In this document: in pieces, positions 7,624 through 44,014 of the stretch
Layout of the letters: the number at the start of each line of letters is the position of its first letter
Numbering within the stretch: position 1 is the stretch's first letter
From: Nitrospirae bacterium MYbin3
GTDB taxonomy: Bacteria > Nitrospirota > Thermodesulfovibrionia > Thermodesulfovibrionales > Dissulfurispiraceae
NCBI GenBank assembly: GCA_002753335.1
Contig: PEAD01000001.1
Span: 139,245 to 203,244 of the forward strand
Length of the DNA: 64,000 nt
Reading direction: 5' to 3'
The notes under the pieces: model-generated
Seen by the model: the letters and a program-made list of their open reading frames with translations, nothing else
Databases searched by the model: none
What the model was told of the DNA's origin: nothing
Translations under genes and position numbers: made by a program

Positions 7624-7626
7624 CCC

Positions 7627-9240: not shown

Positions 9241-9644
9241 TGTATAACAGCGGCAAGATAATTCCGGGGATAATAATCTTTTTGGCGATAGTGCTATTCC
9301 CTTTCTGGTCAAATCTAGGGAAGGCAAATGTAAAGCCCGAGCCGAAGATAGACACTCCTGTCATTCAGCAGATGCCGGTTGAAGAGCGCAAATGCATAGA
9401 GCCTAAGGAGTTTATGAAAGCCGGCCATATGCAGATGCTCAATGACTGGCGCGACTCGGTAATACGAGACGGCAACAGGGTTTTTGTAAGCTCAACAGGC
9501 AAGCATTACAACATGAGCCTTCAGAACGAATGCTTGAGGTGCCATTCCAACAAGAAGGACTTTTGCGACAAGTGCCACAACTACCTTGCCGTAAAACCTT
9601 ACTGTTTCGACTGCCATATTGAACCGAAGGAGAACAAGTCATGA
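9240..9644 (+). CDS. dsrJ: DsrJ, periplasmic tri-haem cytochrome c
   Basis: 134-aa ORF with an N-terminal membrane anchor/signal and exactly three CxxCH motifs (CLRCH, CDKCH, CFDCH). Confidence 0.9.
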   Translation: MYNSGKIIPGIIIFLAIVLFPFWSNLGKANVKPEPKIDTPVIQQMPVEERKCIEPKEFMKAGHMQMLNDWRDSVIRDGNRVFVSSTGKHYNMSLQNECLRCHSNKKDFCDKCHNYLAVKPYCFDCHIEPKENKS

Positions 9645-10444
9645 GCATGGACAGAAGAGACTTTTTAAAAATAGCTGGAATAACGGGACTCTTGGGCGCG
9701 GGCGTGGCTGCTGTTTCAGGCAAAATGCCCGGAATTTTAGAGGCTGCAGTGACCTCCCCCAACTCGAATGCCCTTAAAGCAAAACAGTGGGCTATGGTTA
9801 TCGACATGAGGAAATTCAAGACGCAGGATGACTATAAAAAGGTCATCCATGCCTGCCACAGCATCCACAATATACCTGAGTTCGGCAATCCGAAGGACGA
9901 GATTAAATGGATATGGACCGACAAATTCGAGCATACCTTTGTAGGTCAGGAGCATGAGCATATCAGCGAAGCGGTCAAGGAGAAGCCTTTTGTTCTTCTG
10001 TGCAATCATTGCGAAAAGCCTGCCTGCGTAAGGGTTTGTCCGACAAAGGCGACTTTTAAAAGAAATGACGGCATAGTTATGATGGACTATCACCGCTGCA
10101 TCGGATGCAGGTTCTGCATGGCAGCATGCCCGTTCGGAGCAAGAAGCTTCAACTACAGAGACCCGAGGCCGTTTATCAAAGACAACAATCCCAAATACCC
10201 GACAAGGATGAAGGGTGTTGTCGAGAAATGCACCTTCTGTGTCGAGAGGCTTGACGAGGGGCTTATGCCTGCCTGTGTCGAGGCCTGCAAAGACACCAAG
10301 GCGCTTGTTTTCGGCGACGTAGGCGACCCGGCCTCTGAGGTAAGAAAAGTGCTTAAAGATAATTTCACCATAAGGCGCAAGCCTGAACTCGGCACCAGTC
10401 CGAGCGTCTATTACATAGTAGGAGGTGGCGAGAATGCTGGATAA
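9641..10444 (+). CDS. dsrO: DsrO, periplasmic 4Fe-4S ferredoxin-like subunit
   Basis: 267-aa ORF with a twin-arginine signal ([10 protein letters not shown]) and multiple Cys clusters ([34 protein letters not shown]...CVEAC). Confidence 0.9.
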
Positions 10445-11603
10445 GGCATTAGACGGAAGCAAAAAATACTGGACATGGATCCTCTTCCTCTTAGCCGTAA
10501 TAGGCGTGGGCATGGCCAATTACATGAAGCAGTACGAGTACGGGCTTGGGGTTACAGGCATGAGCAGGGACATCTCATGGGGAGTTTATATTGCGCAGTT
10601 CACCTATCTTGTCGGCGTGGCAGCCTCTGCTGTGATGCTGATAATTCCGAAATACCTTCATGATTATAAAAAATTCGGAAAGATAGTTATACTGGGCGAG
10701 TTCCTGGCGATATCAGCAGTTACCATGTGCCTGCTTTTTATCGTGGCCGACCTTGGCCAGCCGATGAGGCTTATGAATGTAATACTTTATCCGACACCAG
10801 GCTCGATCCTGTTCTGGGACATGATAGTGCTCAACGGATATTTGTTCATCAATCTTTTGGTGGGGTGGACAACGCTTGCGGCAGAGCGGAAACAGGTGCC
10901 GCCTCCAGCATGGATAAAGCCGTTTATTTATCTTTCTATACCTTGGGCGGTCAGCATCCATACCGTAACCGCGTTTCTGTACGCAGGCCTTCCGGGCAGG
11001 CATCTCTGGCTGACCGCGATTATGGCGCCTAGATTCCTGGCTTCGGCTTTTGCTTCGGGTCCATCGCTGCTGATACTTCTCTGTCTGCTGGTCAGGAAAA
11101 TCTCAAAATTCGATCCGGGCAAAGAAGCGATACAGACCCTTGCCAAGATCGTCACCTACGCGATGATAATCAACATATTCTTCCTGGCGATGGAGTTCTT
11201 CACAGCCTTTTACAGCAACATTCCGGGCCACATGGCGCCGCTTCAGTACCTGTTCTTCGGATTCCATGGGCATGGCAATCTGGTGCCTTTCATGTGGGCG
11301 TCCGTAATAATTGGAATTGCATCCGTAGGCCTGCTTATCAATCCTGCTACCCGCCAGAATGAGAAGATACTTGCATTTGCGGCCGCAGGCATCTTTATCG
11401 CAACATGGATAGACAAGGGCATAGGGCTGGTTATCGGAGGCTTTATCCCTAATATGTTTGAGACGGTGACCGAATATTCCGCTACAGGAACCGAGATATC
11501 CATAGCCCTCGGCATCTGGGCCATCGGCGCGCTGGTGCTTACCGTGCTGTACAAAATAGCTATATCAGTAAAAGAAGAGACCGGCGGAGAAGAAGTTCAC
11601 TAA
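10425..11603 (+). CDS. dsrP: DsrP, NrfD/PsrC-family integral membrane quinone-interacting subunit
   Basis: 392-aa ORF with about 10 hydrophobic helices. Overlaps the dsrO 3' end by 20 nt. Last gene of the dsrMKJOP series. Confidence 0.9.
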
Positions 11604-14678: not shown

Positions 14679-15143
14679 ATGCAGGGAAAGATAGTGTCAA
14701 TCAATATCAGCGACAAAAAGGGCGTCAGGAAAACTCCGGTTAAAACGGCTGTGATTATTGAAAATAAAGGCATTGAAGGCGATGCGCACGCATCCGGAGA
14801 CTGGCACAGGCAGGTTAGCCTGCTTGCTATAGAAAGCGTTAGGAAGATGCAAGCGCTCGGACTTGATGTTAAGCCCGGAGATTTTGCCGAAAACATTACA
14901 ACCGAAGGCATCGATCTGATTTCTCTTCCGCTCGAAACACGGATGAAAATCGGTGAAGAAGTGCTCGGAGAAGTCACTCAAATAGGCAAGGAATGCCACA
15001 CCCGCTGCGCTATTTACGATCAGGCGGGCGACTGCGTAATGCCTAAAGAGGGGATTTTTATCAGGATATTAAAGGGCGGCACCATCCGCGTCGGCGATGA
15101 GATTATCGCCAAGCTTAGATTGTCGCCTGAAGCGTACGGCTAA
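14679..15143 (+). CDS. MOSC domain protein
   Basis: 154-aa ORF with a beta-barrel MOSC-like sequence (GIEGDAH...WHRQVSLL...PGDFAENITTEG). GAGGAG RBS. Adjacent to mog. Confidence 0.78.
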   Translation: MQGKIVSINISDKKGVRKTPVKTAVIIENKGIEGDAHASGDWHRQVSLLAIESVRKMQALGLDVKPGDFAENITTEGIDLISLPLETRMKIGEEVLGEVTQIGKECHTRCAIYDQAGDCVMPKEGIFIRILKGGTIRVGDEIIAKLRLSPEAYG

Positions 15144-15148
15144 AAACG

Positions 15149-15631
15149 ATGATAAAGATCGCTGTGCTCACACTTAGTGACAAAGGGGCGCGCGGTGAAC
15201 GGCAAGACGAGAGCGGACCTGCGATAAAAACGGCGCTTCAGGATTTTGGTGATGTAGTTAACTACGATATGCTCCCCGATGAAATGGAGCTCATTAAAGA
15301 AAAACTCATAGAATACTCTGGAAAGGTTGATTTGATAATAACAACCGGAGGCACAGGATTGTCGCCACGGGATGTAACTCCGGAGGCCACTCTTGCTGTG
15401 ATAGAGAGGCAGATTCCGGGGATAGCGGAGACTATGCGAAACGAAAGCCTTAAGAAAACTAGGCGGGCGATGCTTTCGCGGGCGGTTGCCGGAGTTAGAG
15501 GCGGTACGCTTATAATAAATATGCCGGGCAGTCCGGCAGCGGTAAGGGAGCAGTTGGAGATTATCGCTGATGTGCTGCCGCACGCGATAGAAAAAATCAA
15601 AGGCGACCCTGCGGATTGCGCCCGCACTTAA
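15149..15631 (+). CDS. mog: MogA/MoaB-family molybdopterin adenylyltransferase
   Basis: 160-aa ORF with the TTGGTGLSPRDVTPEAT motif typical of the MoaB/MogA fold. Confidence 0.87.
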   Translation: MIKIAVLTLSDKGARGERQDESGPAIKTALQDFGDVVNYDMLPDEMELIKEKLIEYSGKVDLIITTGGTGLSPRDVTPEATLAVIERQIPGIAETMRNESLKKTRRAMLSRAVAGVRGGTLIINMPGSPAAVREQLEIIADVLPHAIEKIKGDPADCART

Positions 15632-15650
15632 TGAGAAGACAGGTTAAAAA

Positions 15651-16364
15651 ATGACAACAACGGTTTCTTTCCCGCTCGCATTTTTGGCAGGCATCCTTTC
15701 TTTTCTCTCGCCCTGCGTTCTTCCGCTCGTTCCGGCTTATGTTTCGTTCATAACCGGGCTTTCTCTCGATGAACTGAAGCACACCCCTAAAGCCTCAAAG
15801 ACTATGGGCAACACACTTGCGTTCGTAGGAGGTTTTTCGGCCGTGTTCATATCTCTCGGCGCTTCTTCTTCGATGCTCGGCGGACTTTTAATGCAGTATC
15901 AGGATTATCTGAGAATAGGCGGCGGAATACTCACGATTATATTCGGACTTTTTATAGCAGGTTTTCTAAAGCTTGATTTTTTGATGAGGGAAAAAAGATT
16001 TCATATCAAAGAAGGCCCCACCGGATACGTAGGCGCGTTTCTTATCGGGATGAGCTTTGCAGCCGGATGGACGCCCTGCATAGGCCCGATTCTCGGCACC
16101 ATATTGATTTATGCAAGCTCTCAGGCCTCGGCCTTTTATGGGATGCAGCTGCTGACAGTTTATTCTCTCGGTTTTGCCATCCCTTTTATACTCTCCACTT
16201 TGGCGATAAATTTTTTCTTCACATATACCAGAAAAATCCATCAGTTCATGCGCGTCATAATGATTATGAGCGGATTAATTTTAATCGTTTTCGGTGTGAT
16301 ACTTTTGACCGACAACCTTCGCCAGCTTACGGCGATATTCCCGGACTTCGGGATCAAAATTTAG
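15651..16364 (+). CDS. ccdA: Cytochrome c biogenesis thiol-disulfide transporter, CcdA/DsbD family
   Basis: 237-aa, six-helix membrane ORF with conserved Cys in LSPCVLPLVP and GWTPCIGPILG. Confidence 0.87.
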   Translation: MTTTVSFPLAFLAGILSFLSPCVLPLVPAYVSFITGLSLDELKHTPKASKTMGNTLAFVGGFSAVFISLGASSSMLGGLLMQYQDYLRIGGGILTIIFGLFIAGFLKLDFLMREKRFHIKEGPTGYVGAFLIGMSFAAGWTPCIGPILGTILIYASSQASAFYGMQLLTVYSLGFAIPFILSTLAINFFFTYTRKIHQFMRVIMIMSGLILIVFGVILLTDNLRQLTAIFPDFGIKI

Positions 16365-32021: not shown

Positions 32022-32378
32022 GTGGCTAAAACGATAATCTTTTACAGAACAACAGAAGGCAAGTGCCCTGTGAAGGAGTTTCTTGATTCTCTTTCTGCAA
32101 AGGCAGCGCAAAAAACAACATGGGTATTAAGCCTGATTGAAGAGCTCGACATAGTGCCGGCATCATATTTCAAGAAGCTTATCAGCACCGAGAATATCTG
32201 GGAATGCAGGATACAGTCAGGCTCCAACGCGTATAGAATATTCTGCTTTTTTGATGGAAGCTCTGTTGTTGTGCTGACGCATGGCATGATTAAAAAAACG
32301 CAGAAGACACCTCAGCGTGAAATTGAAAGAGCCGAGGCATACAGGAAAGATTATTCACAGAGGAGGGTAAGGAAATGA
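32022..32378 (+). CDS. Type II toxin, Gp49/HigB (RelE superfamily)-like
   Basis: 118-aa ORF with a GTG start. Sequence pattern of phage Gp49-like killer proteins (FYRTTEGKCPVKEFLDSL...WECRIQSGSNAYRIFCFFDG...VVLTHGMIKKTQKTP). Upstream of and overlapping an HTH antitoxin gene. Confidence 0.78.
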   Translation: MAKTIIFYRTTEGKCPVKEFLDSLSAKAAQKTTWVLSLIEELDIVPASYFKKLISTENIWECRIQSGSNAYRIFCFFDGSSVVVLTHGMIKKTQKTPQREIERAEAYRKDYSQRRVRK

Positions 32379-32650
32379 GTGATCTAAGAAAATACATTAC
32401 CGAAAGAAAAAAGAGGGACAAGGGTTTTGCCGGAGGCTATGACGAGGGCTACGAACAGTTCAAGATTGGCGTGGTTTTGAAGCAGGCCCGCGAGACCTCA
32501 GGAATAACACAGGAAGAACTCGCCCGAAGGCTGAAAACAAAGAAGACCGCCATATCACGGATCGAAAACCATGCAGAAGATATTAAACTGTCCACCTTGG
32601 AGAAGGTCGCTCACGCTCTAGGGAAAAGGCTTGAAGTGAAAATCGCATAG
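32375..32650 (+). CDS. XRE-family HTH antitoxin (HigA-like)
   Basis: 91-aa ORF overlapping the toxin stop (ATGA). HTH segment GITQEELARRLKTKKTAISRIEN. Confidence 0.82.
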   Translation: MSDLRKYITERKKRDKGFAGGYDEGYEQFKIGVVLKQARETSGITQEELARRLKTKKTAISRIENHAEDIKLSTLEKVAHALGKRLEVKIA

Positions 32651-32788: not shown

Positions 32789-32868
32789 TTTTACTCGGGG
32801 AAAATGGGGAGAAAGTGAGTTATACACAGCGAGCCTCACATCGCTTGTGTAAGAAAAAATATGCATGA

Positions 32869-32933
32869 TACACCCAAAAACTACACCCAAAAACTACACC
32901 CAAAAACTACACCCAAAAACTACACCCAAAAAC
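32869..32933 (+). repeat. Perfect tandem repeat, 13 bp x 5 (TACACCCAAAAAC)
   Basis: Five identical contiguous 13-nt units, read directly. Located between two ATG codons (32861, 32865) and the open reading frame of the downstream MCP. Confidence 0.97.
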
Positions 32934-33120
32934 TGACGATATCCTAATCGTCAACCTTCCAAGGCTTAAGGTTTTATACCCGGTTCTTATATCCGGCGTT
33001 GCCCTTATAGCGTGGCTCCTTATATTTTTTCTGGATGATTTTATAAAAAGCCTTATTCCTATCGCTGATACCGCTACTAAAGATGCCTTCAGCCATGCCT
33101 TATTTGTAATTGCGGAAGGC

Positions 33121-34248
33121 TTGGTCTTTTTGGTGGTTACAATCTACTTTCTCGGCAGACCTCTTACCCAAATCGTAGGATTAGAAAAAGAAATTCTTGA
33201 TAAATACGCACTGCTTAATATTCTTGACAAGACAAGAGAAAACAAAATCAAACATTTCTTTTCTTCTCAAAACAAGGTGCATGAACTGACAAAAGCCCAC
33301 CTTGATAACATCGTTTCTACGACGGACGATGCTGCAAACGGCATCATAAATCAGGCGCAGAGCGTGGATGAATCGATGACCAGCCTTATTACAAAGGTTA
33401 ATGGCCTTAAAAAGAGCAGTATCGAATTTGCAGAAGAAACCAAGGCTACCGTAATGGACAACGAAAAGACTATCGTGAGCCTTAGGCAGTATATAAACGA
33501 AAGGATGAGCGATCTTGATGATGACGCAAGAATGATAAAGACTCTTACAGAGGACGCCACCAATATGGCCAGACTGGTACAGCTTATGAAGGACATAAGT
33601 GACCAGACCAACCTGCTTGCTCTGAATGCGGCCATAGAAGCGGCAAGGGCGGGCGAACAAGGCAGGGGGTTTGCTGTCGTGGCATCGGAAGTCAGAAAAC
33701 TTTCTGTTCAATCTGAACATGCTGCGGGAGAAATAGGCAAGGCCATAACCAGCATGGCAAATAATATCAAGAACGAGCTGGGCAAAAAGATTTCTACTGC
33801 GAACACCGAAAAAGAAAAGGCTATTCTTCACCGTCTTGAGGGGCAGTTATCGGCGCTTGCGGACAGTTACCGGTGTTTGGACCATATGAACACCGAGATA
33901 CTTGAGCAGGTGGGCTCCAGTACTGGTGATGTTGCGAATGAGATTCTTCTAATGCTCGCAAACATTCAGTTTCAGGACATAACCCGCCAGCAGATAGAGC
34001 AGGTGGTTGCTGTTTTGCAGGAGATTGACCAGTATTCAGGCAGGCTTGTTGAGTGGATCGAAAAAGAGCATAACTGCGCCACTGATACATGCGAACTGCC
34101 TGACATGGATGTAGATGAGATACACAACAGGCATTACAAGATGGAAAAGCAGCGCACTATTCATAATGAAGTTATTAAATCCCAGAAAAAATCAGCAGGC
34201 AGTCAAACCAAAGCAAACAAAGATGAAGGCGCGCTCGAATTTTTTTAA
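33121..34248 (+). CDS. Methyl-accepting chemotaxis protein (short, membrane-anchored); 5' end apparently displaced by the upstream repeat tract
   Basis: MCP signalling hairpin motif [34 protein letters not shown]. The first canonical start in frame is TTG 33121. The same frame is open back to 32869 and encodes two hydrophobic helices, and TTG 33121 lies inside the second helix. Confidence 0.85.
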
Positions 34249-34266
34249 GATGCACGGAGGAATTGA

Positions 34267-34635
34267 ATGGGCAAAATGATAATGATAATTGACGATTCCG
34301 CATCAATAAGGTCGGTGGTCGGCATAACACTTAAAAAATCGGGCTATGATGTGCTTGAGGCCTCAGACGGCAAGGATGCGCTGGCCAAGCTTACCGGCCA
34401 GAAGGTAAACCTGATGGTCTGCGATGTGAACATGCCGAATATGGACGGCATATCTTTTTTAAAGGCGGTAAAGCAAAACCCCACCTACAAATTCACGCCT
34501 GTGATAATGCTTACGACCGAATCACAAGAATCTCTGAAGCAGGAAGGCAAAGCGGCCGGAGCAAAGGCATGGATGGTCAAGCCTTTTAAGCCGGATATGC
34601 TGCTGGATGCTGTTGTTCAACTGATTCTTCCTTAA
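34267..34635 (+). CDS. cheY: CheY-like single-domain response regulator
   Basis: 122-aa ORF with the receiver acidic pocket IIDDS, phospho-acceptor in MVCDVNMPNMDG, and the conserved T (LTTE) and K (KPF). Confidence 0.9.
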   Translation: MGKMIMIIDDSASIRSVVGITLKKSGYDVLEASDGKDALAKLTGQKVNLMVCDVNMPNMDGISFLKAVKQNPTYKFTPVIMLTTESQESLKQEGKAAGAKAWMVKPFKPDMLLDAVVQLILP

Positions 34636-34653
34636 TCTCAAGCCGGAGGATAT

Positions 34654-34947
34654 ATGAACTTTAATGCCGAAAAAAGTGAAGGCTTTTGCAAAATGACGAT
34701 AGAGGGTGAAATGAACATCTACCACGCGGCAGAACTGAAAAAAGCTATCTTCGAAAACTTTGCTGACAGCACCGCTATTGAACTGGACCTTTTGCAGGTA
34801 ACAGAGATGGACACCTCCGGTTTCCAGATTATATATCTTCTCAAGAGAGAGTCTGATGCCTCTAACAAACAGTTCAGGATAACGAAGCAGAGCGAAGCCG
34901 TAACTGCTGTAATAAATCTTTACAATCTGGCTTCTCATTTCAACTAA
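34654..34947 (+). CDS. STAS-domain protein (anti-sigma-factor antagonist-like)
   Basis: 97-aa ORF with a SpoIIAA/RsbV-like pattern, including the phosphorylatable-Ser region LLQVTEMDTSGFQIIYLL. Confidence 0.78.
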   Translation: MNFNAEKSEGFCKMTIEGEMNIYHAAELKKAIFENFADSTAIELDLLQVTEMDTSGFQIIYLLKRESDASNKQFRITKQSEAVTAVINLYNLASHFN

Positions 34948-34960
34948 CACAGGAGACCAA

Positions 34961-37120
34961 ATGGAAGAAGTCGATCTCATAAGACAAGTTTTTCTGACAG
35001 AAAGCGTTGAGCATCTTCAAAACATCGAGGACTGCCTGCTCGCTATGGAAACCAATCCTGACGACACAGACACTATAAATGCGCTGTTCAGGGCTGCACA
35101 CACCATCAAGGGCTCTTCCGGAATCGTGGGACTCGAAATCGTCGAAAAGTTCACACATAATGTCGAAAGCCTGCTCGATAAAGTAAGAAGGGGCGAACTC
35201 AGGATAAACGCCGATATTACCGAGGTTCTGCTTAAATGCCGTGACCATATAGCCTCTCTTATAGAGATCGAGACGGACGGCAGGCTCCTTGAGGGCGAGC
35301 TGAAGGCAACCGGGGAAGCATTGAAGAGCGAACTTCTGAAGCTGCTTGGCGCAAAACAGGAAGAGGATAAAAAAATCGAAGCGTCTGCGGTTGTGGAAGC
35401 TGCCCCCTCATATAATGCCTCAGAAACCTCGAACTGGCACCTGTCTTTGAGGTTTTCGCAAAACGTGCTTCAGGACGGCATGGACCCTATATCTTTCATA
35501 AATTACCTTTCGCGTATCGGCGAGATCGTATATCTGGCTACTTTGACAGACACTATGCCATCGCTTGAGGAGATGAATCCAGAAAACTGCTATTTGGGCT
35601 TTGAGCTTGAGTTCAAGACCGATTTTGACAAAAAGACGATAGACGATGTTTTTGAGTTTGTTCGCGAAGACAGTCAGATAAGGATTCTTCCTCCGCACAG
35701 TTCTGTTTCATCCTATGTTGAATTAATCAGAAGCCTTCCTGAAGACCCGCTTAGGTTGGGCGAATTGCTTGTTAAGGGCGGCGCACTTACCCAGTCCGAA
35801 CTTGACGCGGCCCTGCAGGAGCAGGATGAGTCTAAAGGCCGGCTCGGAGAAATCCTTGTAAAAGACAGCGTTGTTCATCCCGAGGTTGTTGAAGCAGCGG
35901 TTGAAAAGCAGAAGCGGGCGCGTGAGGTGAAGTCTCTGGAGAGCCAGACCATAAGAGTGGATATAAACAAACTTGATCAGCTTGTGAATATGGTGGGAGA
36001 GCTTGTGATAACAGGGGCCAACATCAACCAGCAGGCGCAGAGGCTTCAGGACGGCAGTCTGCTGGAATCGGCCTCGGCCATGTCCCGTCTTGTGGAAGCA
36101 ATACGGGAGAGGTCGATGCAGGTGCGCATGGTACCTATCAATGAGGTATTTACCCGCTTCAACAGGGTGGTGCGCGACATCTGCCACGACAGCGGCAAAG
36201 AGATCGAGCTTGTGATAAACGGCGGAGACACCGAAGTGGACAAGACGGTTGTAGAGAAGATAAGCGATCCGCTTATGCATCTGGTGCGCAATGCGGCTGA
36301 CCACGGCCTTGAAATGCCGGAGGCAAGAGCCGCAAAAGGCAAGCGGGCAAAGGGTGTTTTAAAGTTAAACGCCTTTCATGACGCAGGCTGCATAGTTATC
36401 GAGGTTGTGGATGACGGCGCCGGGCTGAACAAAGAAAAAATAATCAAGAAAGCTCTCGAAAGGGGCATGCTTAACCAGTCACAGATACAGACAATGACCG
36501 ACGGCGAGATATACAGGCTTATATTCGAAGCCGGTCTTTCGACCGCAGAACAGATTACCAAACTGTCAGGCAGAGGCGTGGGCATGGATGTTGTGCGGAA
36601 AAATATCGAGGCTTTGAGAGGCACTGTAGAGGTTTCGAGTCAGGAAAATCAGGGCACGACCGTAAGCATAAGACTGCCTCTCACCCTTGCTATCATCGAC
36701 GGCTTTCTTGTCGGCATCGGCGATTCTTCTTTCGTTATACCTCTTGATATGGTTGTGGAGTGCGTTGAACTTTCAGAGGCCTACCGCGAATCAAAGGACA
36801 GACGCAGCTACATAAATCTGCGCGGTGAGGTGCTGCCGTACCTTAGATTGAAAGACCTTTTTGAGGAATCTTCAGAGGTGAGCAAGTACGAAAATATAGT
36901 GGTGGTTAAATATCTAGGTTTTAAAGTCGGCCTTGTGGTTGACAACCTGTTCGGAGAGGTTCAGGCGGTTATCAAGTCTCTCGGAAGACTTTATAAAGAC
37001 ATAGAGGGAGTCTCGGGCGCAACGATACTGGGCGACGGAACAGTAGCACTGATTCTGGATATACCGAGGCTTGTGAGCATTGCAGAGAAAATGGAACATC
37101 TTGTAACAGATTCTCAATAA
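34961..37120 (+). CDS. cheA: Chemotaxis histidine kinase CheA
   Basis: 719-aa ORF. Hpt domain with AAHTIKGSSG. HATPase boxes HLVRNAADHGLE, DDGAGL and GRGVGMDVV. C-terminal CheW-like domain. Confidence 0.95.
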   Translation: MEEVDLIRQVFLTESVEHLQNIEDCLLAMETNPDDTDTINALFRAAHTIKGSSGIVGLEIVEKFTHNVESLLDKVRRGELRINADITEVLLKCRDHIASLIEIETDGRLLEGELKATGEALKSELLKLLGAKQEEDKKIEASAVVEAAPSYNASETSNWHLSLRFSQNVLQDGMDPISFINYLSRIGEIVYLATLTDTMPSLEEMNPENCYLGFELEFKTDFDKKTIDDVFEFVREDSQIRILPPHSSVSSYVELIRSLPEDPLRLGELLVKGGALTQSELDAALQEQDESKGRLGEILVKDSVVHPEVVEAAVEKQKRAREVKSLESQTIRVDINKLDQLVNMVGELVITGANINQQAQRLQDGSLLESASAMSRLVEAIRERSMQVRMVPINEVFTRFNRVVRDICHDSGKEIELVINGGDTEVDKTVVEKISDPLMHLVRNAADHGLEMPEARAAKGKRAKGVLKLNAFHDAGCIVIEVVDDGAGLNKEKIIKKALERGMLNQSQIQTMTDGEIYRLIFEAGLSTAEQITKLSGRGVGMDVVRKNIEALRGTVEVSSQENQGTTVSIRLPLTLAIIDGFLVGIGDSSFVIPLDMVVECVELSEAYRESKDRRSYINLRGEVLPYLRLKDLFEESSEVSKYENIVVVKYLGFKVGLVVDNLFGEVQAVIKSLGRLYKDIEGVSGATILGDGTVALILDIPRLVSIAEKMEHLVTDSQ

Positions 37121-37214
37121 AAAATACCAGAAAGGAGGGTTTTGCTCAGGCAGGTTAATAGCATACGGGTAATCGGGAGAGAAATTAATCTTAACAAACA
37201 AGAGGAGGAACAAC

Positions 37215-38903
37215 ATGCAGTGGTACCTGAATCTTAAAATAGGCGTGAAGTTATTGTCAGGTTTTATGCTTGTGGCTTTAATAGCGGGCATTATCGGTTT
37301 TGTGGGCATAAAAGGCATAAAGGATATAGATGAGGCTGATACTCTTATGTATGAAAAGGTTGTAGTTCCGCTTAATGATGCGGGCGATTTATCCATAGCA
37401 TTTCAGCGCATGCGGGTGAATCTGAGAGATTTGATAACGGCCACTAAGGATGAGGATATCCAGAGATTTGCCAACAGAATAAAAGAGCTTAGAGAAATTA
37501 TTGATAAAAATGCGGCTGCTGTTGAGAAGAGCATGGTAACGGAAGAAGGTAAAAAACTCTATGCCACTTTTGCTGAAACAAGAAAAGTATATGGCCCACT
37601 TGTTGATAAGATGGTAGTGCTGGCAAAAGAAAACAAGGATGCAGAGGCTCTTGCCTTAATGCAAGGAGAGGGGGGAAAGGCTTCTCGGGCTGAGCAGGAG
37701 GCTATAGAAAAAATGCTGGATGCCAAAGTTGCGCTTGGAAAGAAGACCGCTGCAGACAATACGGCGCTTGCAAATAATGCAACCAGAATTATGATTGGAT
37801 TAGTAATAGGCGGAGTAGTTATCTCTATAATCCTTGGCATATTCATATCGCGCATAATCAGCAGGGCTTTGAGCGAGGGTGTAACAGTCGCCAACACTCT
37901 TGCTGATGGGGATTTGAGAATAAACATTGATGTTAAGAGCAAAGATGAAACGGGACAACTCCTTGAAGCGCTTAGAAATATGTTAGCTAAGTTGAAGAGC
38001 ATAGTTGGAGAAGTAAAGACGGCGGCCGACAATGTGGCGTCGGGCTCGCAGGAATTAAGTTCAGGCGCACAGCAGATATCTCAGGGCGCAACAGAGCAGG
38101 CAGCATCTGTTGAAGAGACCTCATCCGCAATGGAGGAGATGACCTCAAACATCAAACAGAATTCTGACAATGCGCAGCAGACAGAGAAGATTGCGCAGAA
38201 ATCGGCGGTTGATGCGCGTGAAGGCGGCAAAGCGGTTGCTGAAACCGTAACCGCAATGAAAGAAATAGCGAGCAAGATATCGATAATAGAAGAGATAGCC
38301 AGACAAACCAACCTGCTTGCGCTGAATGCGGCGATAGAGGCGGCAAGGGCAGGAGAGCATGGCAAGGGCTTTGCTGTGGTTGCATCTGAGGTCAGAAAGC
38401 TAGCTGAAAGAAGCCAGACCGCAGCAGGCGAGATAAGCCATCTGTCATCATCTAGCGTGCAGATAGCGGAGAAAGCCGGAGAGATGCTGACCAAGATAGT
38501 GCCGGACATCCAGCGGACGGCAGAACTGGTGCAGGAGATAAGCGCATCCAGCAAAGAGCAGGACACAGGGGCGGAGCAGATAAACCAGTCTATACAGCAA
38601 CTGGATCAGGTAATACAGCAGAATGCCGGGGCAGCAGAAGAGTTGGCCTCCACATCAGAGGAGCTTTCATCTCAGGCCGAACAGCTTCAAAGCACAATAT
38701 CGTTTTTCAAAACTGACGATACCGGAACCGCAGCAAGAAGGGTTGTTGCAAAGAAACCAGCACACAAGATTCAGGTGGCCCACACAGCCAAAAAGATCGA
38801 AGGGCCTAAAGCGGCTAAAGCCATTACAGGCAGAGGCGTAGCTCTTGATATGAATGAGGGGGCAAAGGCCGGAGACGACGACAAGGAATTTGAGAAATAC
38901 TAA
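37215..38903 (+). CDS. Methyl-accepting chemotaxis protein (four-helix-bundle sensor, HAMP, signalling domain)
   Basis: 562-aa ORF with two TM helices flanking a periplasmic region of about 170 aa, a HAMP segment and the signalling hairpin [38 protein letters not shown]. Confidence 0.92.
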
Positions 38904-38963
38904 AGTCGGCTGGATAAAGGCCAGATAAACCTTAAACTTTACAGATAAGAAAGGAGTTTATTT

Positions 38964-39470
38964 ATGAGCGTAGCCGGCGTAACAGAAACAACGCAATACC
39001 TCACCTTCAAATTAGATGATGAAGTATTCGCGCTTGATATAGCAAAGGTAAGAGAGGTATTGGATTTTACCACAGTAACAAAGGTGCCGAGGACGCCCGA
39101 TTTTATGAGAGGCGTGATAAATCTGCGGGGCAGTGTGGTGCCTGTAGTTGACATGAAGCTGAAGTTTGGCATGTCAACAACCCAAAAGACGGTCAACACC
39201 TGCATAATCATCGTTGAGGTGGTGGTGGAAGGGGAATCAGCCATTCTTGGCGCCCTTGCCGATTCAGTGCAGGAGGTTATAGACCTTGAGCCGAACCAGA
39301 TAGAGCCTTCACCCAAGATAGGCACAAGGCTGAAGACCGAATTCATCAAGGGCATGGGCAAGAGGGACAATAACTTTATCATCATCTTGGACATAAACAA
39401 GGTCTTTTCTGCTGACGAGCTTTCGCTTGTTCAGGGAGCTAATGGCCTGCCTGCAGCCTCTGACCAGTAA
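38964..39470 (+). CDS. cheW: CheW coupling protein
   Basis: 168-aa ORF with the typical CheW pattern QYLTFKLDDEVFALDIAKVREV...VINLRGSVVPVVD. Confidence 0.9.
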   Translation: MSVAGVTETTQYLTFKLDDEVFALDIAKVREVLDFTTVTKVPRTPDFMRGVINLRGSVVPVVDMKLKFGMSTTQKTVNTCIIIVEVVVEGESAILGALADSVQEVIDLEPNQIEPSPKIGTRLKTEFIKGMGKRDNNFIIILDINKVFSADELSLVQGANGLPAASDQ

Positions 39471-39543
39471 CAATCATTTATTAAGGCATAGGCGGCATTA
39501 CGCTGCCTATGCCTTAAATCTTAAAGAACACAGAAGGGCTTAG

Positions 39544-40395
39544 ATGGATTATGTAGGCACAATGAAGCTCAAGGATTTTGAGCGGCTCAGCCGCTTCATA
39601 GAGACGGAGCTCGGCATAAAAATGCCGACGACCAAAAAGACTATGATCGAATCACGCCTGCAAAAAAGGCTCCGTATTCTCGGGCTGAAATCTTTTGATG
39701 AATACTGTGAATATCTATTCAGCGGCGACGGCATGGAAGAGGAGCTGGTGCATATGATAGACATGGTTACCACAAACAAAACCGATTTCTTCCGCGAGTC
39801 GTCACATTTTGATTATCTTGTGCAGAAGGTGCTTCCGGAGATGATAAAAGAGTCTGGATCGGGAGTAATGAATACCTTTATGGCGTGGAGCGCCGGCTGT
39901 TCAACAGGCGAGGAGCCTTACACGCTTGCTATGGTTTTAAGTGAGTTCGGCCTTAGATATCCCGGTCTTTCTTTTCAATACATGATCCTTGCGACCGACA
40001 TTTCAACGAGGGTGCTTCAGGCCGCAAGCAAAGCTACATACGCTGAAGACCGTATCAGTCCTATTTCTCTAGAGCTCAGGAAAAAGTATTTGCTAAGGAG
40101 CAGGGACAGGGAGCAGGGTCTTGTGAGGTTCGTTCCTGAGCTTAGGTCCCATGTAAGGTTTCGCAGGCTGAATTTTCTTGAAGGAGACTTCGGAATGCGC
40201 GAGCAGTTTGATGTGATTTTCTGCAGAAATGTTTTCATTTATTTCGACAAGCAGACTCAGGAGGACATTATGAGCAAGTTCTGCAGGCATCTTAAACCCG
40301 GAGGATATATATTCATAGGCCAGTCCGAAAGCTTCACAGGAACGGATCTTCCTCTCAAAAGGGTCAATCCCTCTGTATATAAAAAGGTGGCATGA
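39544..40395 (+). CDS. cheR: CheR chemotaxis protein methyltransferase
   Basis: 283-aa ORF with the SAM-binding region [14 protein letters not shown] and [10 protein letters not shown] motifs. Confidence 0.92.
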
Positions 40396-41455
40396 AAAAA
40401 ATAAGGGTTTTGATAGTTGACGATTCGGCTGTTGTAAGACAGACCCTTACCAACATTATTACATCCGACCCGGAACTCGAAATCATGGCGACCGCGGCAG
40501 ACCCTTTTATAGCGGCCGAACGGATTGCTGAAGAGGTTCCTGATGTTATAACTCTTGATGTGGAAATGCCGAGAATGGACGGCATCACCTTTTTAACCAA
40601 GATAATGAGCCAGCATCCTATTCCGATAGTAATCGTCTCAAGTCTTGCTGACGAGGGATCCGAGACGGCGATGAAGGCGTTGGAAAACGGGGCTGTGGAT
40701 ATAATCACAAAACCGAAGATGGGCACAAAGCAGTTCCTTGAGGAATCCAGAACCTTGGTCTGCGATACCATCAAAGCAGCGGCCGCGACAAAGGCCAAGA
40801 TAAAAGTTGTCAGGCCACGCAGTTCTCTGGTAGCGCCTAAACTAACAGCGGATGCTGTTCTTGCCAAGCCTACAAAGGCAATGGCACAGACAACAGAAAA
40901 AGTTATCGCGGTGGGAGCCTCCACCGGAGGTACAGAGGCGCTCAGGGAATTCCTCGAGTCCTTGCCGCTTGATTCTCCCGGTATTGTAATAGTTCAGCAC
41001 ATGCCCGAAAACTTTACGGCCGCTTTCGCAAAACGTCTTGACGGCATTTGCAGGATATCGGTTAAAGAGGCCGAAAATAACGACACTGTTATCAGGGGTA
41101 GGGCATTGATAGCACCCGGCAACAAGCACATGCTCTTAAAAAGAAGCGGTGCGAGATATTATGTCGAGGTCAAAGACGGACCTCTGGTTTCGCGTCACAG
41201 ACCTTCTGTGGATGTCCTGTTTCGTTCAGCAGCGCAGTACGGCGGCAAAAATGTTATGGGCGTAATCATGACAGGCATGGGTGATGACGGGCGCGGGGTA
41301 TGAAGGAAATGAAAGACGCCGGAGCTTTCAATATTGCACAGGACGAAGAATCCTGTGTTGTTTTCGGCATGCCTAAAAAGGCGATAGAACACGGCGCAGT
41401 TGACGAGATAGTCCCTCTGAAAAACATATCAAAAGTCATATTCGAAAATCTCTGA
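40392..41455 (+). pseudogene. cheB: CheB methylesterase/response regulator interrupted by a -1 nt frameshift
   Basis: The frame from 40392 (REC: [16 protein letters not shown]; esterase: GASTGG, VQHMP, GMGDDG) stops at TGA 41301-41303. The conserved C-terminus ([30 protein letters not shown]...) continues in another frame, open from 41288 to TGA 41453-41455. One missing base in the G-run at about 41289-41291 would restore a normal CheB. Confidence 0.8.
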
Positions 41456-41484
41456 GCATCTGTTTCTAAGTAAAAACTGGAGGA

Positions 41485-42381
41485 ATGATGTCAAAACTTA
41501 CAGACAGCGAACTGATAGCAGAGCTTAAAAACCGGTTTGAGGAACAGGGCAGGGCCCTTCATGACTTGATGGTTATGACCCGAAAACTGGAGGATGTAAA
41601 CAGCAAGCTTCAGGAGTCGGAGACTATGAAAAGCCACTTTATATCAAACATCAAAAACGAAATAAATAATCCGTTGTCAGTAATTTTGGCGATGTCCGAA
41701 ACCATGTCAGGATTACAGTCCTACGCGGTTGAAGAGATCGCTTCAATGGGAGAGTTGATCTTCACCGAAGCCTTTACACTCGATTTTCAGCTCAAAAACA
41801 TTTTTGCGGCGGCAGAGATAGAGGCTGGAGAGGCCTCTCCTTACATTTCGAATGTGGACATAGACAGCCTTTTGCGAGGATTGGTGGATGTTTATAAAAA
41901 GAGGACGTTGTCTAAAAAACTGACAATAAGTTTTGAATGGATAGGCGATGTGGTTAAAAACAGTTTTAAGACCGATTCAGAAAAGCTGGAACTAATCCTT
42001 TCAAACCTTATTTCGAACGCCATAGAATACACCTCCGAAGGCGGCAAGGTGGCGGTAAAAGCATGGCGGCATGACAATAGTCTGAACATCATAGTTGAGG
42101 ACACAGGCATAGGTATAGGCGAGGATGACAAGCAGGTTATCTTTGAACGCTTCAAGCAGCTTGAGGAAGGCGTACGTAAAAGGCACAAAGGCCACGGCTT
42201 GGGACTAAGCGTGACCAAAGCACTTGTGGAGTTGCTTGGAGGAACTATTTCTGTGGTCAGCATTAAAGACAGAGGCAGCATATTCACAGTATTTATTCCC
42301 GAGATTTCGGGGAAAGAGGGGATTGATGTTTTTTCTGATGACGGTAATGAATTTTTCTTTGAGGAGGAAACTAAATTTTAG
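41485..42381 (+). CDS. Histidine-kinase-like ATPase (DHp-like + HATPase_c) lacking the canonical H-box histidine
   Basis: 298-aa soluble ORF. The H-box position reads FISNIKNEINNPL (Asn where SHELRTPL has His). N box LISNAIEYT, G1 EDTGIGI and G2 GHGLGLS are intact. Confidence 0.8.
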   Translation: MMSKLTDSELIAELKNRFEEQGRALHDLMVMTRKLEDVNSKLQESETMKSHFISNIKNEINNPLSVILAMSETMSGLQSYAVEEIASMGELIFTEAFTLDFQLKNIFAAAEIEAGEASPYISNVDIDSLLRGLVDVYKKRTLSKKLTISFEWIGDVVKNSFKTDSEKLELILSNLISNAIEYTSEGGKVAVKAWRHDNSLNIIVEDTGIGIGEDDKQVIFERFKQLEEGVRKRHKGHGLGLSVTKALVELLGGTISVVSIKDRGSIFTVFIPEISGKEGIDVFSDDGNEFFFEEETKF

Positions 42382-42875
42382 TGCAGACCGCCACAGATAT
42401 AGAGGTAAATGAGCATTACCTTTATCCCGGACAGCTTTTTGCAGCCCCCGCCCCTTACGTAATTACTACGATACTTGGCTCCTGCGTTTCTGTCTGTTTA
42501 TGGGACCCGGTTTTAAGAATAGGCGGAATGAACCATTACCTTTTGCCTTTCTGGAACGGAGATGGTCTGCCTTCGCCCAAATACGGAAATATCGCTATCC
42601 CCAAGCTTATAGAAAAAATGCTTTCTATCGGCTCCCAAAGATCAAACCTTAAGGCAAAGGTGTTCGGAGGCGGGGCTGTGCTTGAGACATCAGGAGGTCT
42701 TCTTAATGTTGGAGAACGAAATATCATGTTATATAAAGATCTGCTTGAAAACGAAAAGATGCCGGTCTTATGCTCAGACACCGGAGGCACGCAGGGAAGA
42801 AAGGTGATCTTTCACAGCGACACCGGCGAAGTGTTTGTTAAGAAGATACAAAAGGCAATTAGACCTATTGGATAA
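42381..42875 (+). CDS. cheD: CheD chemoreceptor glutamine deamidase
   Basis: 164-aa ORF with a GTG start overlapping the preceding stop. Catalytic-Cys region TILGSCVSVCLWD and GGMNHYLLP motif. Confidence 0.9.
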   Translation: MQTATDIEVNEHYLYPGQLFAAPAPYVITTILGSCVSVCLWDPVLRIGGMNHYLLPFWNGDGLPSPKYGNIAIPKLIEKMLSIGSQRSNLKAKVFGGGAVLETSGGLLNVGERNIMLYKDLLENEKMPVLCSDTGGTQGRKVIFHSDTGEVFVKKIQKAIRPIG

Positions 42876-42917
42876 GTTAAAAAGACAGGAAAACCACTTA
42901 ATCTTGAGGAGGGAGAT

Positions 42918-43220
42918 ATGGAACTAAAAGAAACAGGTCAGTCTGAGATCACAATTTTGGGAAACATAAGAAATATTGAAGACTATTTGGCGATCAAGAA
43001 AATGATTATTACCATGATAGATAAGGGTGAGAAGAACATAACGATAAAAGTTATTGAATCAATGACTATGAACTCCTCAATTATAGGTTTTATGCTAAAG
43101 GTGGTGTTTGAGGAAAAAATAATCTTAAACCTTCGGGTAAAAAACGACATTCTTTACAATCTTCTCAAAACTCTGAATCTTGTAAAACCGTTTCATGTAA
43201 AGAAGATTAAAGATAAATAA
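42918..43220 (+). CDS. Small STAS-like protein (tentative)
   Basis: 100-aa ORF with GGAGGGAG RBS. Its pattern ITILGNI...NITIKVIESMTMNSSIIGFMLKV resembles the beta-alpha layout and Ser-containing loop of STAS domains. Weak assignment by eye. Confidence 0.5.
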   Translation: MELKETGQSEITILGNIRNIEDYLAIKKMIITMIDKGEKNITIKVIESMTMNSSIIGFMLKVVFEEKIILNLRVKNDILYNLLKTLNLVKPFHVKKIKDK

Positions 43221-43297
43221 AAAGCAGTCAACACCGGACTCTCAAGTTGCCTTAAATGGGAAATTTAGCTAAGGACTTTTTTAAAAACACAAGGGCT

Positions 43298-43534
43298 TTA
43301 TAATTCATCCCCATGAATTGGCTTGCGACTTGGAACCTTAGATAATATTTTTTTAAAATCTGTTTTGTTTGCCCGTTTGGCTCTTTGTTTGAGGTAGTCT
43401 TCTGTCATTAAGGCAGAAATTTTTTCTGATACCGCAGAAGATATAAATTGATTGATCGATACACCCTCTTTGGTCGCAATATCTTTAATATGACGATGTA
43501 TTGAGTTCGGCAAACGCAGACTTAAAGCGCTCAT
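43298..43534 (-). CDS. Ribbon-helix-helix/HicB-like antitoxin
   Basis: Preferred start ATG 43534 (MSALSLRLPNSIHRHIKDIATKEGVSINQFISSAV...) overlaps the PIN gene stop (ATGA). The N-terminal RHH-type strand-helix-helix pattern is present. Confidence 0.72.
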   Translation of the reverse strand: MSALSLRLPNSIHRHIKDIATKEGVSINQFISSAVSEKISALMTEDYLKQRAKRANKTDFKKILSKVPSRKPIHGDEL

Positions 43535-43956
43535 AATAAATCCTCCCATAATTTCTTTGGTGTTATTGCTGTTACATTAAAACGCTCTATGTTTTTAAAG
43601 TGTCTGGTATTGTGAGTTACGATAAACTTTGAACCAGAGGCCACGGCTAATTCCAGCAAAAGGTCATCTTTAGCGTCATACAGGCAGGGACGCCACAGAA
43701 AATATATCTTTTGATGTTCGCTCTGCATGCAAAAATAATTTAAAATCTTTTCTATTTCCCTAGTTGATAATCCTAACTGTGCTTGGTTTCTCTTAAAGAT
43801 GTCTTCATACTCAAATATAAGCGTGGTTGATAGCACCATCTGAACTTTGCCTTCTTCTATTGCTTCTAGAATCTTAAACGAAGCGCCTTTAGATGAATAA
43901 AGCCCTGAATAAAGCACATTCGTATCAAGAATAATTCTAAACTTATTTCGCTGCAT
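43531..43956 (-). CDS. PIN-domain toxin
   Basis: 141-aa ORF with the N-terminal acidic motif IILDTNVL and later conserved acidic residues (EYEDI, DAKDD). Coupled to the small RHH gene. Confidence 0.8.
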   Translation of the reverse strand: MQRNKFRIILDTNVLYSGLYSSKGASFKILEAIEEGKVQMVLSTTLIFEYEDIFKRNQAQLGLSTREIEKILNYFCMQSEHQKIYFLWRPCLYDAKDDLLLELAVASGSKFIVTHNTRHFKNIERFNVTAITPKKLWEDLL

Positions 43957-44014
43957 ATTATAATACTACATTTGGTATCATTTAGCTGTTAATAAAACAA
44001 AGATTTTTATTCAG

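Follow-up and report, generated by a model that had tools for sequence, protein, structure and literature searches.

A histidine-less kinase-like protein encoded beside cheD, and its possible part in signal termination, in a chemosensory operon of Nitrospirae bacterium MYbin3

Introduction

What does a chemosensory system control, and how is its signal brought to an end, when its genes lie away from any flagellar or pilus locus and code for small STAS-type proteins and for a kinase-like ATPase devoid of the phospho-acceptor histidine? This question is raised by an operon located at positions 33121 to 43220, on the forward strand, of a stretch of 64,000 nucleotides (nt) from the metagenome-assembled genome (MAG) of Nitrospirae bacterium MYbin3, hereafter called the window. 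All 11 genes listed in an initial annotation of this DNA were found on the forward strand at their annotated coordinates and with the domains described, and their order was confirmed with Pfam and, for the last gene, by the predicted fold of its product: a first methyl-accepting chemotaxis protein (MCP1), CheY, a first STAS protein (STAS1), CheA, a second receptor (MCP2), CheW, CheR, CheB, the histidine-less HisKA/HATPase protein, here named HKL, CheD, and a second small STAS-like protein (STAS2). Their spacing is operon-like, with intergenic gaps of 13 to 94 nt, a 4-nt overlap between cheR and cheB and a 1-nt overlap between HKL and cheD. The reported lack of flagellar and pilus genes nearby was upheld, no such domain having been detected in the ~50 open reading frames (ORFs), mostly of at least 150 amino acids (aa), that were scanned across the window.

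The initial annotation went on to propose that HKL acts as the kinase of the STAS proteins, and that the chemosensory (Che) system is wired through it to a partner switch controlling a function other than a motor. The operon is read here, with a probability of about 0.5, as an F8-like (34H receptor) chemosensory operon in which the core genes are joined by three accessory modules with putative roles, namely STAS1, HKL-CheD, and STAS2. Chemosensory clusters bearing STAS genes are already known; the new element is a family of kinase-like proteins of an asparagine (Asn) type, together with its obligate pairing with cheD.

HKL Belongs to a Family of Histidine-Less Kinase-Like Proteins

HKL, encoded at 41485 to 42381 on the forward strand, is a soluble protein of 298 aa that matches the Pfam HATPase_c profile at 97 bits and the HisKA profile below threshold. 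Alignment with the histidine kinase HK853 (2c2a) places Asn58 of HKL opposite the phospho-acceptor H260, and the canonical “SHELRTPL” becomes “KNEINNPL” (in the context “IKNEINNPL”), which bears out the description of the ATPase as histidine-less. Asn occupies the acceptor position in 27 of 27 aligned homologues, in 120 of the 120 top homologues and in 127 of 129 short representatives at 50% identity, the two exceptions having His and Cys; the longer multidomain matches returned by the same family search carry the canonical SHELRTP. Since the change defines the whole family, it does not reflect decay of HKL. Counting from the acceptor position, the +1 residue is Glu in 113 of 118 sequences, the +4 residue Asn in 115 of 118, and the +5 residue Pro in all 118, and HKL itself keeps E59-x-x-N62-P63. 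The N, G1, and G2 boxes of the ATP-binding domain are invariant among the 27 aligned sequences (N174, N178, D206, G208, G210, G236, G238, and G240). No other conserved His was found in the helical hairpin across the family alignments. Two candidate features of this hairpin were considered and rejected: His51 (in “KSHF”) as an alternative acceptor, the family consensus at this position being Asn or Asp, and an invariant “AAEIEAGE” in helix 2 as a CheD-directed mimic of a receptor methylation site, because it represents the ordinary HisKA end-of-helix motif “R-(L/I)-E-(A/S)-G,” in which Glu has taken the place of Arg.

The AlphaFold2 model of HKL comprises a long N-terminal helix leading into a dimerization and histidine phosphotransfer (DHp) hairpin of two long helices, followed by a standard catalytic (CA) domain and a disordered tail. 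With its HisKA-like hairpin, and with a score of 24.7 bits against Pfam HATPase_c_2 that lies below the cut-off of 27.4, HKL is a HisKA-type DHp+CA protein and not a kinase of the SpoIIAB/RsbW type. Clustering at 50% identity divides the family into at least 120 clusters, and some family members carry a fused N-terminal receiver (REC) domain (REC-HKL, ~413 aa; P0240, P0265, and P0290). Many homologues originate from MAGs labeled Magnetococcales or Ca. Magnetobacterium. The current annotation of HKL proteins as “HAMP domain-containing histidine kinase” is misleading.

Kinases of the HisKA type that have lost their acceptor His are not without precedent. The NtrB H139N variant is reportedly kinase-dead and phosphatase-competent, and DivL has a Tyr at the acceptor position and an ATPase domain that is regarded as dispensable. 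Mutants of CrdS and HK853 are likewise kinase-dead and phosphatase-competent; the E-x-x-N residues serve phosphatase chemistry in HisKA kinases, in which a +4 Thr or Asn is needed for phosphatase activity, and CheX also uses an ExxN pair (PMC3510030). HKL resembles the kinase-dead variants and DivL in the replacement of its acceptor His and in its DHp+CA architecture, and the phosphatase-competent mutants in keeping the +4 residue (PMC3510030). It differs from the kinase-dead variants and DivL in forming a natural family without a sensor domain, and in having a conserved tail and an obligate linkage to cheD. No literature was found on a His to Asn change of this type or on a histidine-less kinase encoded beside cheD, and the papers on Geobacter, Pelobacter, and Campylobacterota systems do not describe the kinase gene.

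HKL Is Invariably Linked to cheD

Directly downstream of HKL lies the gene of a CheD deamidase (42381 to 42875, forward strand; Pfam CheD 1.7e-27), in which the catalytic Cys and His are present (LGSCVSV and GGMNHYLLP); its match to the NCBIfam CheD model reaches 6e-45, yet falls below the curated family cut-off. Thirteen HKL loci were examined, i.e., that of the window and those designated L001 to L006, L008, L009, and L088 to L091, and in 13/13 of them cheD is found directly downstream of HKL, at a distance of 0 to 38 nt, with or without STAS genes. The pair occurs without a STAS gene in L009, which is a che cluster lacking STAS1, in L088 and L089, which have stand-alone HKL-cheD pairs amid housekeeping genes, and in L091 (430 to 1674), where the gene of a REC-HKL fusion stands downstream of a CheY-like gene and upstream of cheD. 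L003 contains an additional, divergent cheD (31% identity), and the HKL-linked one is 65% identical. As a negative control, contigs were scanned with a search seeded on generic kinase motifs, which recovered 78 ordinary kinases and only 2 HKL-family members; cheD was nearby in none of the 78 ordinary kinase loci. No gene of the operon matches a profile of CheC or CheX homologues.

HKL as a Putative CheC-Like Partner of CheD

A role that accommodates both the altered acceptor site and the linkage to cheD, and to which we give somewhat less than even odds, is that of a kinase-dead protein resembling CheC in function, which would act with CheD to dephosphorylate or sense phosphorylated CheY. As Asn replaces the acceptor His throughout the family, an HKL dimer would be unable to autophosphorylate on His. 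It keeps a receiver-docking helix and would instead dock phosphorylated CheY, and perhaps CheB, on its DHp helices and would hydrolyze or sense the phosphoryl group in partnership with CheD, nucleotide binding serving as a cofactor. HKL and CheD would then constitute a feedback of the CheC-CheD kind rebuilt on a kinase scaffold.

The analogy with CheC is drawn from gene linkage. In the CheC-CheD systems of Bacillus subtilis and Thermotoga maritima, as would be the case here, cheD is immediately preceded by, and co-transcribed with, an accessory gene whose product is directed at CheY, and an acidic/amide catalytic pair of the ExxN type is present in HKL as well. On the other hand, HKL has no sequence or fold relation to CheC, CheX, or FliY, being built instead as the core of a histidine kinase, ATP-binding domain included. 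More tentatively still, HKL-CheD may represent an undescribed and widespread module of signal termination or adaptation, in which a natural, phosphatase-only core of a histidine kinase, bearing the His to Asn change, would sense or remove the phosphorylation of CheY, would be coupled to the receptor deamidase CheD, and would replace CheC in those lineages where CheD is present and CheC is not. In such a module, the receptor-like tail of HKL (DGNEFxF...F) may dock at the same adaptation enzymes as the receptor pentapeptide does.

Disorder is predicted for this tail, DGNEFFFEEETKF, in which an acidic/aromatic motif, DGNEFxFEE...(K/R)F, is conserved. Acidic/aromatic C-terminal tails, compared in the window and in L002 to L006 and L088 to L090, are found in MCP2 (D(G/K)xEFE(K/R)Y, 38874 to 38903), HKL (42340 to 42381), and MCP1 (...(E/T)FF, 34228 to 34248). 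The C-terminal pentapeptide of MCP2 belongs to a type by which CheR and CheB are tethered, and the tails of the three proteins may share a docking site on one or the other of these enzymes, the resemblance between HKL and MCP2 being suggestive only.

STAS1 Occupies a CheS-Like Position Between CheY and CheA

CheY (34267 to 34635, forward strand) is a single receiver domain of 122 aa (Pfam Response_reg 1.9e-28), which shares 77 to 78% identity with its counterparts in five related loci (L002 to L006). Its gene is followed by that of STAS1 (34654 to 34947, forward strand), a STAS-only protein of 97 aa whose gene is also found between cheY and cheA in the orthologous clusters L002 to L006 and L090. 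STAS1 scores 42.5 bits against Pfam STAS (cut-off 22.6) and 36.2 against STAS_2 (cut-off 29.2), and 49.5 bits against TIGR00377, slightly under the cut-off of 53.45. The closest PDB matches of a family profile built from STAS1 and four orthologues are TM1442 (8e-10), RsbV (1e-5), and SpoIIAA (4e-5), in which the invariant “MDTSG” of STAS1 aligns with “MDSSG,” “MDSTG,” or “MDSAG.” Thr54 is found at the position of the phospho-Ser of SpoIIAA, aligned with the Ser that follows Asp in “MDSSG.” As a Thr is kept at this phospho-site, STAS1 may itself be phospho-regulated.

By its position, STAS1 appears to correspond to the CheS of alpha-proteobacterial operons, a STAS-only protein known from Sinorhizobium meliloti and Agrobacterium fabrum, where it binds CheA and exerts a bias on the phosphotransfer among the CheYs (PMC12654446). 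Both are STAS-only proteins, that of the window being of ~97 aa, with genes beside cheY and cheA, and both systems have a receptor-first operon that also includes cheD; the order is cheY-STAS-cheA here as opposed to STAS-cheY1-cheA there, and no second CheY is encoded here (PMC12654446). By analogy, STAS1 would act at CheA and CheY like CheS, tuning phosphotransfer to and from CheY.

Divergent STAS2 Has a Predicted STAS Fold and a Partner-Switch Neighbor in Relatives

The last gene of the operon (42918 to 43220, forward strand) codes for STAS2, a protein of 100 aa that has no match in Pfam, STAS included. Comparison of the STAS2 and STAS1 families with hhalign gave a probability of 0.3%, a STAS2 profile retrieved only spurious coronavirus HR1 matches among PDB sequences, and a homologue search with the single STAS2 sequence returned nothing apart from STAS2 itself. 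An alignment seeded from neighboring loci defined a family with 33 members, all small and for the most part encoded by Thermodesulfovibrionales, and the AlphaFold2 model computed from it reached a predicted local distance difference test (pLDDT) score of 92.1. The best PDB matches of this model are SpoIIAA (1h4y/1tid), RsfB, TM1442, and RsbS, with template modeling (TM) values of 0.65 to 0.73 and a probability of about 1.0, and two invariant residues of the family, Ser53 and Ser54, are located at the start (N-terminus) of the second helix. The STAS fold of STAS2, not seen by sequence methods, is thus confirmed as far as the predicted structure goes. The view that both small proteins are STAS proteins thus held for STAS1 by profile (Pfam STAS and STAS_2), and for STAS2 it failed by sequence and stood by predicted fold.

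In 4 of 4 other loci, the STAS2 family gene lies directly 3′ of a gene for a REC-PP2C(SpoIIE)-HATPase_c_2 protein of ~570 aa, which it overlaps in L005, L006, and L007 and after which it starts by 4 nt in L002. In three of these four loci (L002, L005, and L006), the REC-PP2C-kinase/STAS2 pair adjoins HKL-cheD and the orthologous che cluster. A tblastn search with the L002 and L005 proteins gave no match at E<1 within the 64-kb window. The cognate HATPase_c_2 kinase and PP2C phosphatase that a partner-switching circuit would place beside the STAS genes are therefore not found in the window, and are present for the STAS2 family in L002, L005, L006, and L007. The STAS2 gene of the window is on the same strand as cheD and not divergent from it, and its product is off consensus at 11 of 42 conserved columns, compared with a family median of 1.

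STAS2 would be the antagonist half of a partner switch of the CrsR/HsbR type, in which the REC domain could, in the relatives, take phosphoryl groups from the Che system, such that the phosphorylation of CheA or CheY would govern a sigma factor or another target. Systems of this kind have been described in several bacteria. In Shewanella oneidensis, the che1 cluster is associated with CrsR (REC-PP2C-anti-sigma kinase) and CrsA (STAS), which control RpoS, and the nine genes listed for che2 include an uncharacterized antagonist (PMC9855816). In gamma-proteobacteria, a serine phosphatase and two anti-sigma antagonists are encoded in the ancestral (“stage 1-2”) F7 clusters (PMC7184735). As for gene order more generally, the legend to Fig. 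1B of PMC9239204 names genes for STAS proteins (“S”), histidine kinases (“K”), and CheD (“D”) among those of the F7, F8, F9, and F14 classes. The clusters of L002, L005, and L006 resemble Che1-CrsR/CrsA, the Pseudomonas HsbR/HsbA system, and the ancestral F7 clusters in linking a che cluster to a REC-PP2C-kinase and a STAS antagonist, and also in having two STAS genes (PMC9855816, PMC7184735). By contrast, the window has no REC-PP2C-kinase gene and its STAS2 is too divergent for Pfam STAS. The receptor here looks 34H-like instead of 36H Aer2-like, and HKL is unmentioned in these systems (PMC9855816, PMC7184735). The proposed wiring of the Che system to a partner switch is thus supported in relatives by the REC-PP2C-kinase/STAS2 pairs at three che loci, and is reasonable for this type of cluster; the circuit through HKL is the part of the proposal that was not supported.

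Core Components and Chemosensory Class

The core order MCP1-CheY-STAS1-CheA-MCP2-CheW-CheR(-CheB) is kept in the related loci L002 to L006 and L090. CheA (34961 to 37120, forward strand) has the Pfam domains Hpt, H-kinase_dim, HATPase_c, and CheW, corresponding to the P1, dimerization, HATPase, and CheW-like domains. Between its P2 region and its dimerization domain are two tandem 24-residue motifs of the MshEN type, RLGELLVKGGALTQSELDAALQEQ and RLGEILVKDSVVHPEVVEAAVEKQ, at residues 265 to 288 and 294 to 317 (nt 35753 to 35911), a segment that scores 50.8 bits against NCBIfam NF053729 (cut-off 38). Both motifs conform to the tandem RLGxx(L/V)(L/V)xxG...Q pattern of the MshEN domain, and the segment is kept in the orthologous CheAs, some of which have Leu for the first Arg. 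CheA thus carries a candidate domain for the binding of cyclic di-GMP (c-di-GMP); the MshEN-CheA combination is listed, without study, in PMC5013675.

MCP2 (37215 to 38903, forward strand) is a transmembrane receptor (Pfam 4HB_MCP_1, HAMP, and MCPsignal) that ends in the C-terminal pentapeptide EFEKY. It is ~14 residues shorter than the 36H models of Tar, Tsr, and Tcp, has its tip at Gly380 and the end of its transmembrane region near 215, and these dimensions suggest a 34H-like geometry. The same values of tip (Gly380) and transmembrane end (near 215), with a C-terminal pentapeptide, are given for PSPTO_0912, the F8 34H receptor of P. syringae (PMC11253619). The likeness to this F8 cluster (cluster II of P. 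syringae pv. tomato) covers receptor geometry and pentapeptide and the association of CheA, CheW, CheY, CheR, and CheB in one cluster, in a host that is here a Nitrospirota (PMC11253619). In P. syringae, F8 components modulate swimming motility (PMC11253619). The initial impression of an atypical cluster must accordingly be qualified: STAS-bearing che clusters are known and the operon looks like the F8/34H class of the Wuichet and Zhulin scheme (PMC7184735, PMC9855816, PMC11253619), for which the output is not established.

Downstream of MCP2 are encoded, all on the forward strand, CheW (38964 to 39470; Pfam CheW 2e-37), the methyltransferase CheR (39544 to 40395; Pfam CheR 1.2e-58 and CheR_N), and the methylesterase CheB (40392 to 41455; Pfam CheB). 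Near 41293, the loss of one G from a G run shifts the reading frame of cheB by 1 nt, such that the ORF ends at 41303 and the ~50 conserved C-terminal codons of the gene lie in a different frame, up to 41455; tblastn with the CheB of L003 changes frame at GDDG|ARGMKEMK.

A Repeat at the Start of MCP1 and a CheZ-Like Segment Within It

MCP1, as annotated at 33121 to 34248 on the forward strand, is a short receptor (Pfam MCPsignal 1.5e-28) with a conserved signaling hairpin and an ...EFF tail. Its reading frame remains open upstream to 32869, and the true start of the gene is near 32861/32865. This 5′ end (32861 to 32934, forward strand) contains two overlapping ATGs, at 32861 and 32865 (ATGCATG), followed at 32869 to 32934 by a perfect 13-bp tandem repeat, TACACCCAAAAAC, present in 5.1 copies (Tandem Repeats Finder, TRF, score 132, 100% matches). 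The array is the only one in the 64-kb window with a TRF score of at least 50, and the repeat was not found in the orthologous loci examined. With the 5 copies of the assembly, neither ATG is in frame. Removal of one unit brings ATG 32865 in frame and yields a full-length receptor of ~456 aa with two transmembrane segments, like its orthologues; by frame arithmetic, addition of one unit (6 copies) would bring ATG 32861 in frame. The repeat could be a slipped-strand phase-variation switch of the receptor or an artefact of assembly. Taken together, the two lesions, i.e., the frameshift in cheB and the out-of-frame start of MCP1, suggest an operon that is switched off, variable, or decaying, or else errors in the assembly; the outlying position of STAS2 within its family adds to the picture of an operon switched off or in decay.

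MCP1 also contains, at residues ~283 to 296 (nt ~33967 to 34008), a CheZ-like DxxxQ segment that is invariant in 6 orthologues. The protein scores 22.2 bits (1.4e-4) against Pfam CheZ, below the curated cut-off of 30.7, and 1.5e-5 against NCBIfam Phos_CheZ, and the top PDB match of a profile of its C-terminal part is E. coli CheZ (1KMI), aligned on D143 and Q147, at an E-value of only 0.074. Judging from these alignments, MCP1 may be a receptor with an embedded CheY phosphatase, of which no description was found in a limited literature search. A separate observation concerns L090, where a neighboring second che cluster encodes a CheW-CheZ fusion of 398 aa (14780 to 15976, reverse strand; Pfam CheW and CheZ).

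Surroundings of the Operon

The 3′ boundary of the operon is marked by a convergent toxin-antitoxin pair (43298 to 43956, reverse strand), which consists of an RHH/HicB-like antitoxin (43298 to 43549) and a PIN toxin (43531 to 43956) as judged by Pfam. A second toxin-antitoxin pair lies upstream at 32022 to 32650 (forward strand), with a Gp49/HigB-like toxin and an HTH antitoxin, so that the operon is flanked on both sides. The G+C content drops to 0.39 at 42001 to 44000, compared with about 0.46. A scan for promoters and terminators gave results no better than those obtained for shuffled sequence. Elsewhere in the window are found genes for lipopolysaccharide heptosyltransferases, dsr-type redox proteins, tRNA synthetases, cobalamin-type methylases, another 4HB MCP, and a GGDEF protein. 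The redox genes form, at 6026 to 11603, a dsrMKJOP-like set (an RsbRD_N-domain protein, a nitrate-reductase-gamma-like protein, Fe-S proteins, and NrfD), which fits a sulfur-metabolizing Nitrospirota host.

Alternative Readings of HKL and of the Operon

Histidine-less Ser/Thr kinases of the GHKL family exist, such as PDK/BCKDK and SpoIIAB, and HKL could accordingly be a Ser/Thr protein kinase of STAS1, STAS2, or both, through which the Che system would feed a partner switch directly, as the initial annotation had it. The fully conserved ATP-binding boxes in the absence of an acceptor His would suit such a kinase, and so would the Thr54 of STAS1 and the Ser53/54 of STAS2, which take the place of the phospho-site of SpoIIAA. 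Two STAS genes are present in the window, where, the tblastn search for a REC-PP2C-kinase being negative, there is no other candidate kinase, and the REC-HKL fusions suggest that phosphorylation could control HKL as an output domain. This reading is improbable in view of the architecture of HKL, a HisKA-type hairpin with a conserved, receiver-directed E-x-x-N-P motif and a HATPase_c_2 score under threshold (24.7 vs. 27.4), and of its strict tie to cheD, which extends to the four loci with no STAS gene nearby (L009, L088, L089, and L091). Moreover, the STAS2 family has its own HATPase_c_2 kinase domain alongside in 4/4 loci, and descriptions of STAS-bearing che clusters, e.g., of the nine genes listed for Shewanella che2, do not mention a histidine-kinase gene (PMC9855816). 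Phosphorylation of the STAS proteins by HKL is thus a less likely role than that of phosphatase or sensor. A pseudokinase akin to DivL, relaying the state of phosphorylated CheY allosterically and without hydrolysis, by sequestration or release of CheD or by modulation of CheA, would equally be in keeping with a kinase core intact except for its His, with the presence of DivL (4q20) among the close PDB matches of HKL, with the linkage to cheD in 13/13 loci, and with the REC-HKL fusion preceded by a CheY-like gene. The nearly invariant, phosphatase-specific Asn at +4 (115/118) and the invariant ATP-binding boxes argue against it, since pure scaffolds usually lose such residues, and although sequence alone cannot tell a pseudokinase from a phosphatase, we hold this role of HKL to be rather doubtful as well.

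The operon as a whole might also be an ordinary F8 flagellar chemotaxis system with accessories of the CheS and CheD types, present in a decaying or phase-off copy in which STAS2 would be a stranded remnant without a role. The frameshift in cheB, the out-of-frame start of MCP1 behind the 13-bp x5 repeat, the departure of STAS2 from 11 of 42 conserved columns together with the loss of its usual REC-PP2C-kinase neighbor, and the toxin-antitoxin pair and low G+C content at the 3′ end all point in this direction, as does the part played by F8 components in the swimming motility of P. syringae (PMC11253619). The remaining genes are intact and near their orthologues (CheY 77%, CheW about 80%, CheB 73%), assembly or population heterogeneity in a MAG typically gives rise to effects such as a one-base indel or the copy number of a repeat, and no flagellar genes occur nearby among the ~50 ORFs scanned in the 64-kb window, all of which makes this reading unlikely, if slightly less so than the two preceding ones. 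The reading of the operon as an F8-like system with CheS-like, CheC-CheD-like, and partner-switch modules has its own weak points. The full conservation of the ATP-binding boxes of HKL exceeds the needs of a phosphatase and fits equally well a transferase acting on a non-His acceptor; STAS1 keeps a hydroxyl residue at its phospho-site, and HKL is the only kinase candidate for it in the window. The CheZ-like DxxxQ of MCP1 could supply a CheY phosphatase, such that a second one would be less needed. Furthermore, the assignment to F8 is derived from receptor geometry and gene order and not from a CheA class model, the link between STAS1 and CheS is one of position only, and both the frameshift of cheB and the copy number of the repeat could be assembly errors.

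Significance

Many bacteria have CheD and lack CheC, and for most non-motor chemosensory systems the output and the way in which the signal ends are unknown. The HKL family, which has the appearance of a histidine kinase locked as a phosphatase, provides a testable hypothesis for how CheY is reset. In addition, the association of che genes with a REC-PP2C-kinase/STAS pair, known from the F7 clusters of gamma-proteobacteria, is extended here to F8-like clusters of the Nitrospirota type, and this extension supports the idea of the control of stress responses or sigma factors as a recurrent output of chemosensory systems.

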